Positions 8,504 through 19,975 are shown, counted from the stretch's first letter. The stretch: DNA of 64,000 nucleotides from Spirochaetota bacterium (GCA_963664815.2 CAXXHB010000002.1:704001-768000); one strand, 5' to 3'. Notes: generated by a model from the letters alone, not told the origin. Numbers and translations: made by a program.

Positions 8504-8576
8504 GAGGCGTTAGCTCAGTCGGTAGAGCAACTGCCTTTTAAGTAGTGGGTCCGGGGTTCAAGTCCCCGACGCCTCA
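8504..8576 (+). tRNA. tRNA-Lys(TTT), CCA not encoded
   Basis: Acceptor GAGGCGT/ACGCCTC, D arm GCTC/GAGC, anticodon arm ACTGC-CTTTTAA-GTAGT, T arm CGGGG-TTCAAGT-CCCCG. Confidence 0.97.
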
Positions 8577-8596: not shown

Positions 8597-8669
8597 GTCC
8601 CCGTCGTCTAGGGGTCTAGGACACCGGGTTTTCATCTCGGCAGCAGGGGTTCGAATCCCCTCGGGGATG
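8597..8669 (+). tRNA. tRNA-Glu(TTC), CCA not encoded
   Basis: Acceptor GTCCCCG/CGGGGAT, anticodon arm CCGGG-TTTTCAT-CTCGG, T arm AGGGG-TTCGAAT-CCCCT. Confidence 0.96.
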
Positions 8670-16417: not shown

Positions 16418-17269
16418 ATGTTAACAGCAATATATGCAATATTAGTTATGGTTGGCCTTGGCCTGTTTTTCGGGGTTTTCATTTCGTTCGCAAATAAAAA
16501 ATGGGCTGTTGAGGTCGATCCGAGAATACATGAAGTTGATGAGATTCTGCCAAAGGGACAATGCGGTTCGTGCGGTTATCCCGGGTGTATGGCTTATGCC
16601 GAAGCGGTTGTAATGAACCCGGATGTACCCGCAAATCTCTGTGCACCGGGTAAGGATGCAGTTGCGAAGAAGGTAGCCGAAATAACAGGTAAAAAGGCGG
16701 AGGCTCTTGAACAGAAGATTGCCTTTGTCAGATGTGCAGGTACTTATGAAAAAGCAACAAGAACGGGAGAATACAGGGGTGTTAAGGATTGCGTTTCAGC
16801 GAATATACTTGTCGGCGGAGATAAAGGATGTACTTTTGGATGTCTTGGCTACGGTACATGCGTTAAAGTCTGCATGTTTGATGCGTTACACATGAGCCCG
16901 GAGGGTATTCCGATAGTTAATCCCGATAAATGTACAGGGTGTGGAAAATGCGCAACTGTCTGTCCGAGAACCGTTATAGCACTTGTTAAACCGAATATTA
17001 TGGTTAAGGTAAACTGTAATTCTCATGACAAGGGCCCTGTGGTGAGAAAACATTGCAAGGCCGGATGTATAGGATGCGGAATGTGTGCGAAAGAGTGCCC
17101 ATTCGGTGCGATTAAAATTGATAATTTCCTTGCAATAGTGGACAGTACAGTCTGTCTTGAAAAGTGCTCAGACCCTGTGTGTATGGTGAAGTGCCCAACA
17201 AAGGTATTAAAACCGGCAATATGGGGTACAGTTCCCGGTTTCGAGGTGAAAGAGGAACAGAAAGCCTGA
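16418..17269 (+). CDS. rnfB: Rnf complex subunit B (polyferredoxin)
   Basis: N-terminal TM, LPKGQCGSCGYPGC, CAPG, several CxxCxxCxxxCP motifs. Confidence 0.96.
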   Translation: MLTAIYAILVMVGLGLFFGVFISFANKKWAVEVDPRIHEVDEILPKGQCGSCGYPGCMAYAEAVVMNPDVPANLCAPGKDAVAKKVAEITGKKAEALEQKIAFVRCAGTYEKATRTGEYRGVKDCVSANILVGGDKGCTFGCLGYGTCVKVCMFDALHMSPEGIPIVNPDKCTGCGKCATVCPRTVIALVKPNIMVKVNCNSHDKGPVVRKHCKAGCIGCGMCAKECPFGAIKIDNFLAIVDSTVCLEKCSDPVCMVKCPTKVLKPAIWGTVPGFEVKEEQKA

Positions 17270-17373: not shown

Positions 17374-17413
17374 GAATTATTTCAGTGAATATATTTATTC
17401 ACTGAAATAATTC
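17374..17413. repeat. Perfect 18-bp inverted repeat spanning the glyQS stop codon
   Basis: GAATTATTTCAGTGAATA-TATT-TATTCACTGAAATAATTC. Confidence 0.9.
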
Positions 17414-18777
17414 TTTATGTATTCACTTAGCGTTGCAATGGCAATACGTTCCTGTTTCATGGTATCGCGGTCACGAATTGTTACCGTATCTGATAGACTG
17501 GTATTATCACCTTTTCCGATAGTATCAAAATCTATAGTGACACATAATGGTGTACCAACTTCATCATTTTTACGATATGCCTTCCCTATATTGCCGCTGT
17601 CTTCAAAATAGATTCTGCCAACGCCCAGTTTCATTAATAGAGATTTTACCTGCCGGGCTTTTTCAACAATTTCGTGATTATTACGCGCAAGGGGCATAAC
17701 AGCTACTTTAATAGGAGATAAATGCGGTTTGAGTTTAAGAACAATTCTTTGTGTGCCGTTTTCAAGAGTTTCTTCAGTATAGGCCTCAGTTAAAACAGCA
17801 AGTACACCGCGATCGACTCCGGCAGATGGTTCAATAACGAATGGAACAATCTGCTTCTGAGTTTCAAAATCCATAATAGTGAGTTTTACTATGGAATCAT
17901 CATTAGGTTCAACATGGGCAGTCAGGCCAAGATCGTCGGATTTTTTTGAATGAGAACCAAGGTCATAATCAGTCCGGTTAGCAATACCTTCAAGCTCTTC
18001 GACTCCATGTGGAAAACGATAGAGGATATCAACGGTCGCTTTAGCATAATGAGCAAGCTCTTCTTTTGTTTGATGGTATTGCTGGAGGTTGTCACTGGTA
18101 AGACCCTGCTCTTTCCACCAGTTAATACGTTGTTCAACCCATCTTGCATGCCATTCATCATCAGTGCCCGGTTTTACGAAATATTCAAGCTCCATCTGCT
18201 CGAATTCGCGAACCCGGAAAATGAAATTTCGGGGTGTAATTTCATTTCGAAACGCTTTTCCTATCTGTGCAATACCAAAAGGGAGCTTTCGCGATGTTGA
18301 ATCAATAACATTTTTAAAGTTGCTGAATATTCCCTGTGCAGTTTCAGGACGCAGATATGCAAAGTTGTCATCATCAGCGACGGGCCCAACTGTTGTTTTG
18401 AACATCAAATTAAATGGACGCGGTTCAGTGAGGTTGTTTCCTCCGCATTTTTCACAACGTCCCTTTTTAAGCTGGTCCGCGCGCCAGCGGCTTTTGCAGT
18501 CTTTGCAGTCCACCATCGGATCGGTGAAAGTTGCTTCATGTCCCGAATGTCGAAGTACATAACGGTGAGTTAATATTGCAGCATCGAGTCCTTCGATATC
18601 ATCACGTTCGTATACCATAGAACGCCACCAGGAGGATTTGAGGTTGTTTTTTAGTTCAACACCAAGAGGACCATAATCGTATAAACCTTGAAGACCGCCG
18701 TAAATATCAGAACTTTGAAAAATGAAACCGCGTCGTTTACACAGCGATACAAGTGAATCCATGGTTTTTGCAGGCAT
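17395..18777 (-). CDS. glyQS: Glycine--tRNA ligase, homodimeric (alpha2) type
   Basis: [44 protein letters not shown]; start MPAKT at 18777 has a GGAG SD. Confidence 0.97.
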
Positions 18778-18943
18778 GTTTAATCTCCAAAAGGATATAA
18801 AAAGATAAGTACTTGTTTGTATAAAAGGCATTGTCTGTCAACAGAGAAAAAATTTAATATAAATAAGATTTCTTGAAGCTGAGAGATCAGCTATTTTGTT
18901 GACAAAAAAGTAATAATATTTTTTATGAATCATATTCTGTTAC

Positions 18944-19000
18944 GGGAAGATCAGGTATTAACCGGGCCCACAGGCAGTGACATTTGTCACGGGACTTCCT
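18944..19000 (+). ncRNA. Compact NiCo (czcD)-like metal-sensing riboswitch
   Basis: Four-way junction: P1 GGAAG/CTTCC, ATCA, P2 GGT-ATTA-ACC, GG, P3 GCC-CACA-GGC, A, P4 GTGAC-ATTT-GTCAC, GGGA. CAGG, CCGGGC and GGGA junction words occur in NiCo order, directly upstream of a CDF gene. Confidence 0.7.
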
Positions 19001-19114
19001 TCAATTGCTTAAGCCTGGCTGAAAACAGCCATACATAAAAATTGGAGAAAGCGGCCGGTTTTATTTTTACTATTTAAATCCCCGCCCCTTACTCCTCAGA
19101 AGTTTGAGGATACC

Positions 19115-19975
19115 ATGAATAGAAAACAAAAAACTGCCAGACTGTCGATTTTATCAAATTCATTATTAATTATAATTAAGCTTGTGGTTGGAATTATTAC
19201 CGGATCTGTGAGTATTATTTCAGAAGCAATACATTCAACCATGGATCTGCTGGCAGCGATTATTGCCTTTTTTTCCATAAAGATTTCGTCCATGCCTGCT
19301 GATGCCGAACATAATTATGGTCATGAAAAACTTGAAAATATTTCTGGAGTTATTGAAGCATTACTTATTTTTCTTGCTTCCGGTTTTATAATTCATGAAG
19401 CAGTTAAAAAAATGATCAGCAATGAGCCGATTGCTTCTATCGGCATGGGTTTTATTGTTATGTTTATCTCTGCCCTGATCAACTATTTTGTTTCCAGAAA
19501 GCTTTATAAGGTTGCCAGAGAGGAAGAATCCGTGGCTCTTGAAGCCGATGCTCTTCATCTCAAGGTTGATGTTTATACATCAATAGGTGTCGGTTCCGGA
19601 CTTTTACTGATACATATAACAAAAATTAATATTCTTGATCCGATAGTAGCAATTCTTATTGCACTTTTCATCCTGGTAGAAGCGTACGATATGCTTAAGA
19701 GGGCCTTTTTCCCTCTTGTTGATGAAAAAATTTCTGATGATGATATTAAAATTATTAAGTCTTCAATAGAACAGTTTCATGAGAGTAAGGTTGACTTTCA
19801 TGACTTGCGTACACGCAGAAGCGGACATATCAAACATATCGATTTTCATCTTGATATTCCTGAAAACATGACTGTTGCGCAGGCACATGAGATTTGTGAC
19901 CGGATTGAAATTGAAATTGAAAATAAACTTCGTAATACAAAAATACTTATTCATGTAGAGCCGCGTAAAACCTGA
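19115..19975 (+). CDS. Cation diffusion facilitator (FieF/CzcD family) transporter
   Basis: EAIHSTMD, PADAEHNYGHEKLE, ALEADALHLKVD, LDP, HDLRTRRSG, IHVEP. Confidence 0.95.
   Translation: MNRKQKTARLSILSNSLLIIIKLVVGIITGSVSIISEAIHSTMDLLAAIIAFFSIKISSMPADAEHNYGHEKLENISGVIEALLIFLASGFIIHEAVKKMISNEPIASIGMGFIVMFISALINYFVSRKLYKVAREEESVALEADALHLKVDVYTSIGVGSGLLLIHITKINILDPIVAILIALFILVEAYDMLKRAFFPLVDEKISDDDIKIIKSSIEQFHESKVDFHDLRTRRSGHIKHIDFHLDIPENMTVAQAHEICDRIEIEIENKLRNTKILIHVEPRKT

Follow-up and report, generated by a model that had tools for sequence, protein, structure and literature searches.

The window analysed here is a stretch of 64,000 nt from a Spirochaetota bacterium (GCA_963664815.2, CAXXHB010000002.1:704001-768000), numbered throughout from its first letter. 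Its plus strand carries a gene for a CDF metal exporter with Pfam matches to Cation_efflux (9.4e-51) and ZT_dimer (8.4e-21), bearing out the CDF gene assumed in the original prediction, which was made from the sequence alone and placed a stripped-down, apparently translational NiCo/czcD riboswitch upstream of it. NCBIfam scores for the exporter are 236 bits for the CDF superfamily, 220.9 for MntE and 180.7 for FieF (both far under the respective cut-offs of 500 and 420), 86.2 for ZitB and 40.8 for the Co/Ni family DmeF, and the closest solved structure in the PDB is FieF/YiiP (3.6e-35). The protein thus appears to belong to a FieF/MntE-like branch, an assignment that is compatible with iron export and no proof of it. 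The elements from the promoter region through the aptamer, and the exporter gene about 115 nt downstream of the latter, are as follows.

18899-18904, plus strand: likely -35 box TTGACA, as read from the sequence
about 19 nt after TTGACA, plus strand: TATGAA-like sequence, putative -10 box
18944-19000, plus strand: predicted compact NiCo-type aptamer (MFE and centroid fold, match to the Rfam consensus, matches to covariance models R1 and R2, covariation)
18944-18949 with 18995-19000, and the pair C18952-G18993, plus strand: P1
18954-18963, plus strand: P2, 3 bp, loop AUUA
18966-18975, plus strand: P3, 3 bp, loop CACA
18977-18990, plus strand: P4, 5 bp, loop AUUU
A18953, GG 18964-65, A18976, GG 18991-92, G18993 and A18994, plus strand: junction letters
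19115-19975, plus strand: CDF metal exporter, 286 aa (open reading frame and Pfam; HxxxD motifs in TM2 and TM5)

The putative promoter would likely start transcription at about 18935-18940, just upstream of P1. TTGACA and an A-run are kept in the two other window-type leaders described below (G028 and the metagenome copy L151), and the DNA farther upstream is not conserved; a promoter scan returned no site satisfying its criteria. Elsewhere in the window, the translation of 17395-18831 (minus strand) looks by eye like a single-chain glycyl-tRNA synthetase and that of 16418-17269 (plus strand) like an RnfB-type iron-sulfur protein, and two adjacent tRNA genes lie on the plus strand at 8504-8576 and 8597-8669 (71.6 and 55.6 bits).

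Structure and identity of the predicted aptamer

With RNAfold, the MFE structure of 18940-19005 (-18.9 kcal/mol) and its centroid structure are both four-way junctions, exactly the clean P1-P4 arrangement that had been claimed. The words on which that claim was built are likewise where they had been placed (GGAAG at 18945-49, CTTCC at 18995-99, AACCGG at 18960-65, CCGGTT at 19055-60, TCCTCAG-AAGT-TTGAGGA at 19093-19110 and ATG at 19115), and ATCAGG, CCGGGC and GGGA are also present. Taken alone, the fold is weakly better than chance and proves little, with a z-score of -1.87 and 9 of 200 shuffles folding equally well; the window holds a single occurrence of the aptamer core pattern, for which 100 shuffles give an expectation of 0.00. 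The aptamer is raised above chance by its conservation, its recurrence before metal-transporter genes in many genomes and the covariation of its helices. From GGAAG to CTTCC the core spans 55 nt, the shortest in the set of 43 sequences assembled below.

The original prediction had suggested that covariance models may miss such an element and had proposed a search with the Rfam NiCo model (RF02683). Rfam 15 at gathering thresholds reports nothing at the aptamer site in a scan of the whole window, NiCo yields no match even at E<=10 on 301 nt around the aptamer, and RF02683 run over the whole 5.2-Mb genome has no match at this site. The gathering cut-off of 37 bits is an operational criterion and not a biological one. 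The element was compared directly with the Rfam NiCo consensus and structure line, as read from a weak and unrelated match in the genome (L001, 17.7 bits). This consensus starts with P1 (acuG-Ag-C), A, P2 (GGCc...gGCC, 10 bp with a Gg bulge) and GG, and ends with P3 (GCCgc-auua-gcGGC), A, P4, GG and G-A-Cagu. Aligned to it, the window reads GAAG-AU-C, A, GGU-auua-ACC, GG, GCC-caca-GGC, A in its first half and GUGAC-auuu-GUCAC, GG, G-A-CUUC in its second. The junction letters equal the consensus at every position, and only distal parts of P2, P3 and P4 are absent.

For the NiCo structure 4RUM, the accessible part of 10.1101/2025.08.02.668262 gives G40-42 (J2/3) and G81-83 (J4/1) as the metal-binding guanines and G83-C11, G40.A12, G42-C55 and G81.A56 as the junction-closing pairs. 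Mapped through the consensus, these positions correspond to G18964-66, G18991-93, C18952, A18953, C18975 and A18976, all kept at the sequence level, so that the six guanines and two adenines of the metal sites described in that part of the source are all present in the window. The window lacks an equivalent of G18, the fourth cobalt site, which lies in P2; since this site is reported to be unimportant for the conformational response (PMC9389577, Xu and Cotruvo 2022, in the portion available), we do not take a long bulged P2 as defining NiCo. The element thus scores below the Rfam cut-off and lacks a long P2 with an internal bulge, and it has the four helices around a junction, the conserved junction letters, the metal-contacting bases (by sequence) and a place in the leader of a metal-transport gene.

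Relatives and covariation

A BLAST search of the leader against 60 related genomes returned one true homologue (G028, 82% identity), which differs from the window in the P3, P4 and SD-hairpin loops; the remaining matches were short AT-rich pieces and were discarded. A covariance model built from these two sequences (R1) matches two of the 64 genomes of the window's family, and in a 151-genome sample of the phylum it identifies two further real copies, G214 (36.9 bits) and G188 (33.3 bits). Two other R1 matches (L036, 20.6 bits; L037, 19.7 bits) were rejected for alignments without P3 or P4.

Pattern searches with the fixed words GGAAGATCAGG, CCGGGCC and GGGACTTCC extended this set. The first pattern, applied to genome contigs, returned at least 100 loci; among the matches listed, 16 carry a 3' half of the form YGGGACTYCC and 84 are coding-sequence false positives in high-GC genomes, for instance in a conserved helicase motif. 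The recurrent coding motif GAAGATCAGGC....GACCGGGCC.ACCG.AT.GGGCAG, which is probably helicase motif VI of SNF2-type proteins, was caught in many phyla (L039, L040, L042, L044, L046, L056, L084, L100, L112, L118 and L131), a warning for pattern-based riboswitch searches. A second pattern, which fixed the 3' strand in place of the 5' strand and was run on metagenomes, returned 54 loci, about 23 of them real and about 31 false positives. One locus (L155) that has the 5' words and lacks both J3/4 and P4 was not passed by R1 and was left out, as were six loci with cores that are, by eye, the same as those of genome loci (L139, L142, L154, L160, L178 and L188) and four duplicates (L153, L179, L184 and L189). 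The 61 loci submitted to R1 contain 32 distinct compact copies that the model recognises, and these occur, among the matches listed, in Spirochaetota, Dictyoglomota, Chitinivibrionales, Planctomycetales, Omnitrophota and metagenomes.

When 17 distinct compact loci were searched with RF02683 under permissive filters (E<=10), eight were matched, at 43.1, 37.0, 36.9, 33.2, 30.6, 30.5, 28.3 and 25.8 bits against the cut-off of 37, and the other nine, including the window, were unmatched. One locus (L038) is missed by cmscan in gathering mode and yet scores 43.1 bits in E-value mode; the fast filters of Rfam, besides its threshold, lose compact NiCo copies.

A second model (R2) was built from the 32 compact sequences alone. 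At E<=0.1 it has matches in 17 of 122 genomes of the window's class, and 11 of its 16 new loci are Rfam NiCo matches, 10 of them at 37 bits or more, with long-P2 loci ranging from 36.1 to 51.4 bits. These long-P2 loci have a bulged P2 of 24-31 nt and classical terminators. R2 matches without Rfam support (L201 and L203-L206, 20.9-27 bits) were left out of the joint alignment. Two genomes of the window's own genus, G003 and G006, carry canonical long-P2 NiCo elements (loci L198 and L200, about 1500-1590 of each locus on the minus strand, 51.4 and 50.7 bits), and the window's genome has a compact copy only. The original prediction had placed a stripped-down variant in another phylum: a compact copy in Spirochaetota is indeed what we find, and its occurrence there is made less remarkable by long-P2 NiCo elements above the Rfam cut-off within the window's class and even its genus. 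The intermediate Rfam scores, the recovery of long-P2 members by R2 and the joint alignment tie the compact copies to the NiCo family. P2 length in the 43 aligned sequences is bimodal, at 9-12 nt in 33 and 24-31 nt in 10, with none between.

Collecting homologous leaders for covariation had been proposed as a check, and the joint alignment of 43 sequences, whose fit to the model limits the statistics drawn from it, shows that the helices covary and that the junction nucleotides are conserved. Across the alignment 95.7% of cells are paired and 12 of 18 pairs have compensatory changes, a level of covariation reached by none of 500 shuffles, and sliding the partners leaves 21-47% paired. All five P4 pairs are compensatory, already in the compact-only set, and the junction letters are invariant in 43 of 43 sequences. 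Among the compact copies there is little variation in P1, in P3 or in two of the three P2 pairs, but part of this invariance was imposed by the fixed words of the search patterns, and we do not use it as evidence. Independent covariation comes mainly from P4, from the third pair of P2 and, in the long-P2 sequences, from P1.

We conclude, with a probability of roughly 0.82, that 18944-19000 is a compact NiCo (czcD) ligand-binding domain through which metal excess would switch the CDF exporter on.

Genes downstream of the compact copies

Pfam places a metal-transporter gene downstream of 28 of the 32 compact copies. CDF genes follow 18 of them, P-type ATPases (Cation_ATPase_N plus E1-E2) nine and an Nramp gene one; a truncated N-terminus that looks by eye like the same CDF and an apparently fragmented Nramp bring two more by eye, and the two remaining loci run off their contigs. 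In the available part of PMC9389577, the genes behind NiCo riboswitches include P1B4 ATPases (many predicted riboswitches), an MgtA-like P-type ATPase (one characterised riboswitch), CDF-type genes and non-ATPase genes, and the associations of the compact copies therefore lie within the NiCo range known from that gene list.

Three Spirochaetota-type loci have a hydrophobic open reading frame of 74-90 aa, without a Pfam match, between the riboswitch and the P-type ATPase gene (L035:1240-1464, minus strand; L059:1595-1819, plus; L043:1199-1471, minus), and its SD is the one adjoining the aptamer. At two plus-strand loci (L034:1585-2400 and L051:1580-3023) a conserved open reading frame of 34-38 aa stands between the riboswitch and an Nramp gene. 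The Nramp gene of L051 is intact (424 aa, 2.3e-73), and that of L034 looks fragmented in L034, where the Nramp-like stretch holds no open reading frame of at least 80 aa. Nramp-type proteins form a family of mostly importers, which makes an ON switch before one of them odd.

The leader downstream of the aptamer

Between the aptamer and the start codon, the leader contains the following elements.

18995-19006, plus strand: switching strand CUUCCUUCAAUU, its first 5-6 nt being the 3' strand of P1
19001-19045, plus strand: stem-loop II, UCAAUU (19001-06) with AAUUGG (19040-45), enclosing a hairpin at 19016-19031 (RNAalifold, three leaders)
19044-19047, plus strand: putative GGAG pseudo-SD (anti-anti-SD), with two alternative partners, CUUC in the switching strand and CUCC at 19092-95
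19049-19090, plus strand: stem-loop III, AAG.GGC.GG with CC.GCC.CUU and a variable AU-rich loop (RNAalifold)
19093-19110, plus strand: SD-sequestering hairpin, UCCUCA(G) (19093-99) with (U)UGAGGA (19104-10), SD GAGGA at 19106-10

The switching strand is identical in the window, G028 and L151 and can pair with AAUUGGAGAAAG (19040-51) at 11 of 12 positions, with one C/A mismatch. The pair at G19058 in stem-loop III reads G-C, A-U and G-U across the three leaders. The stems of the TCCTCAG-AAGT-TTGAGGA hairpin, which had been proposed to bury the SD of the CDF gene, are identical in all three, changes being confined to the loop. The second helix proposed at that time, in which CCGGTT would invade AACCGG, does not hold up: it is not conserved, the closest relative (G028) having CCGATA at this place. 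Three further candidates were rejected. The free MFE pairs UCAGGUAU with AUACCAUGA, but neither G028 nor L151 conserves this pairing; an intrinsic terminator formed by GCGGCCGG and its U-run has no stem partner, and its U-run is conserved in neither of these leaders; and a leader peptide in the spacer has no start codon at a suitable distance from GGAG. No terminator-like site was found between 18944 and 19114.

The invariant segments of the leader can form a chain of four pairings, GGAAG/CUUCC, CUUCCUUCAAUU/AAUUGGAGAAAG, GGAG/CUCC and UCCUCA/UGAGGA, which suggests a relay from the aptamer to the SD. By analogy with characterised NiCo riboswitches, cooperative binding of excess Fe2+, Co2+ or Ni2+ at the junction would hold P1 (GGAAG/CUUCC) closed and take CUUCC out of the alternative 12-bp helix with AAUUGGAGAAAG. 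The freed GGAG would then pair with CUCC (19092-95) and lengthen stem-loop III; because CUCC belongs to the anti-SD strand, the SD would open more easily and the CDF exporter would be translated, making the element an ON switch. In the window, the unconstrained MFE contains the CUUCCUUCAAUU/AAUUGGAGAAAG helix together with UCCUCA/UGAGGA, and the MFE with the aptamer enforced contains GGAAG/CUUCC together with GGAG/CUCC. The predicted cost of opening the region from SD to AUG in the three window-type leaders is 4.34, 4.32 and 5.20 kcal/mol with the aptamer enforced and 8.93, 7.78 and 7.71 kcal/mol with P1 blocked, energies that fit an ON switch acting on translation. The RNAalifold consensus of the three leaders retains the SD hairpin alongside the folded aptamer, and so do the aptamer-forced MFEs of G028 and L151. 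The relay is thus a model derived from ensemble energies and from the complementarity of invariant segments, which in three nearly identical leaders offer no covariation to check it by.

Since the leader is without a terminator and its SD lies in a conserved hairpin, control of the CDF exporter is probably translational. Of the translational platform in the original prediction, these two features stand, and the opening of the SD by the aptamer is the step that we infer. The 60-nt spacer at 19000-19058 is nearly invariant in the window, G028 and L151 (2-3 changes), and the aptamer loops and the promoter spacer diverge. This spacer is more constrained than the proposed SD relay needs, and the relay explains its conservation incompletely.

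Among the relatives, the 3' strand of P1 (GGGACUUCC) either shows direct complementarity to the SD region (GGAGUCCC or GGAAGGAG) or itself supplies a terminator's 5' arm. Many high-GC copies have GGAGUCCC at the SD, where it is complementary to GGGACUUC; the Nramp-linked copies have GGAAGGAG after CUUCC; and the Dictyoglomota copies use CUUCCUGC as the 5' terminator arm. To judge from these arrangements, the strand would act in these relatives as an anti-SD or a terminator arm, a role that may account for the constancy of GGAAG/CUUCC. Three loci from Planctomycetales and Omnitrophota (L075, L090 and L116) have a distal element (GAUCUUCC, GGUCUUCC and GGUUUUCC) followed by a U-run, 30-60 nt past the aptamer and complementary to the P1 5' strand and its A-rich flank; the resulting terminator-like helix would enclose the whole aptamer, an unusual 'P1-swap' platform.

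Discussion

The accessible text of PMC9389577 reports dissociation constants of about 1 uM for Fe2+, Co2+ and Ni2+ in three canonical NiCo members, describes a poor response to Mn2+ and argues for Fe2+ as the physiological ligand. By analogy, the predicted aptamer most likely turns the exporter on in Fe2+, Co2+ or Ni2+ excess. The original prediction had raised the possibility of a different metal preference, for which we find no support, all metal-contacting bases being kept. A variant riboswitch with the same fold and a selectivity shifted, for example, to Mn2+, strictly to Fe2+ or to Zn2+ seems to us very unlikely. It would be in keeping with the genes served by the compact copies (FieF/MntE-like CDFs, PMR1/SERCA-like or MgtA-like P-type ATPases and Nramp), many predicted NiCo riboswitches preceding P1B4 ATPases instead (PMC9389577, available part), and with the much shorter P2 of the window, a helix described in 10.1101/2025.08.02.668262 as packing beside P4 in the folded state. 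However, no guanine or adenine of the metal sites is changed, canonical NiCo elements also precede CDF and MgtA-like ATPase genes and are reported to discriminate against Mn2+ (same part of PMC9389577), and the exporter scores with MntE and FieF are far below the cut-offs of 500 and 420. The partners of the compact copies (FieF/MntE-like CDF, PMR1-like ATPase, Nramp) are also in line with a compact-P2 subtype that is a functionally distinct minimal sensor of about 55 nt, with CUUCC as a direct anti-SD and a metal tuning towards Fe2+ or Mn2+, a reading that we consider quite unlikely.

Other alternatives concern the step under control and the nature of the element itself. A NiCo aptamer might act through Rho-dependent termination or mRNA decay in the 115-nt spacer rather than on translation start: RNAalifold keeps the SD hairpin whether the aptamer is folded or not, the spacer at 19000-19058 is more conserved than the aptamer loops, which a simple SD relay explains incompletely, and the long-P2 relatives of the class use transcription terminators. 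We regard this as unlikely, given that the leader has no intrinsic terminator, that G028 and L151 do not conserve the U-run after GCGGCCGG, that many compact relatives have a direct anti-SD/SD arrangement and that the SD costs 2.5-4.6 kcal/mol less to open with the aptamer enforced. Far less probable is a conserved leader structure without any metal-sensing role (for instance a protein-binding or stability element) and has a NiCo-like junction only by resemblance. There is a precedent in the NiCo look-alike 'Sensei', which bound no metal on re-test (PMC9389577, in the part available), but the scores of the compact copies grade continuously into sequences above the Rfam NiCo cut-off, their junction letters are identical to those of NiCo, and every readable downstream gene is a metal transporter (28 of 32 by Pfam and two by eye, with two off the contig). 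The modest z-score of -1.87 and the missing Rfam match speak for a chance fold in an AT-rich intergenic region, but this explanation is refuted by the conservation, the covariation and the gene association.

NiCo is a known class, to which the window element adds a sub-threshold member; its compact subtype should be represented in the family seed. The literature searched, a set that does not cover the original class paper (Furukawa et al. 2015), yielded no account of compact NiCo members or of NiCo members from spirochaetes; the available part of a 2022 survey counts 783 NiCo representatives (PMC9481103). The standard covariance model under-counts the class, with 15 of 17 compact copies below threshold and nine of 17 unreported, and because it misses these copies NiCo reaches further than database matches suggest. 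The 55-nt core is a candidate minimal metal-binding unit that could serve biosensor design and could help to dissect which aptamer parts set metal selectivity. For genome annotation, the CDF gene gains a predicted regulatory logic, namely induction by excess Fe, Co or Ni.

Comparison with known systems

With canonical NiCo (RF02683, 4RUM) the window element shares the P1-P4 four-way junction, the same nucleotides at that junction (C-A before P2, GG plus G at J2/3-P3, A at J3/4 and GGGA at J4/1) and a position before CDF or P-type ATPase transporter genes, and the 3' strand of its aptamer may likewise double as the switching strand. Its P2 is shorter, with 10 nt (3 bp closed by a 4-nt loop) where the consensus has about 29 nt and a 2-nt bulge, and so are its P3 (3 versus 5 bp), its P4 (5 versus 6 bp) and its core (55 versus about 87 nt). 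It is below the Rfam threshold and unreported, it has no terminator, and its SD lies in a distal hairpin past a conserved 115-nt spacer. The long-P2 elements L198 and L200 have the same core words (GAUCAG...CGGGCC...GGCAGCAG...GGGACUU) and, by eye, a CDF-like gene next to them; in contrast to the window, their P2 measures 26-28 nt with a GCGG bulge, their terminator overlaps P4 and P1, and the downstream protein is a different one of 306-319 aa. The same NiCo-like four-stem architecture is found in other members of Rfam clan CL00122, among them presumably the NiCo-AnGGAG variant. Lower-scoring overlapping clan matches exist at the loci; NiCo is the best-scoring member in every match, and the window carries the NiCo junction letters with none altered.

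The yybP-ykoY Mn2+ riboswitch is also a metal-sensing leader before exporters, including P-type ATPases, and contains a four-way junction; according to 10.1101/2025.08.02.668262, its metal site is, unlike that of NiCo, remote from the junction. Its conserved sequence differs, and its Rfam model has no match in the window or in the loci scanned. The look-alike RNA 'Sensei' came from a search with a relaxed NiCo description and was proposed as an Fe2+ riboswitch in a paper since retracted, and the accessible portion of PMC9389577 reports it as unresponsive to Fe2+ or Co2+. Unlike 'Sensei', the window element has the full NiCo core and is tied to the canonical members by intermediate scores.
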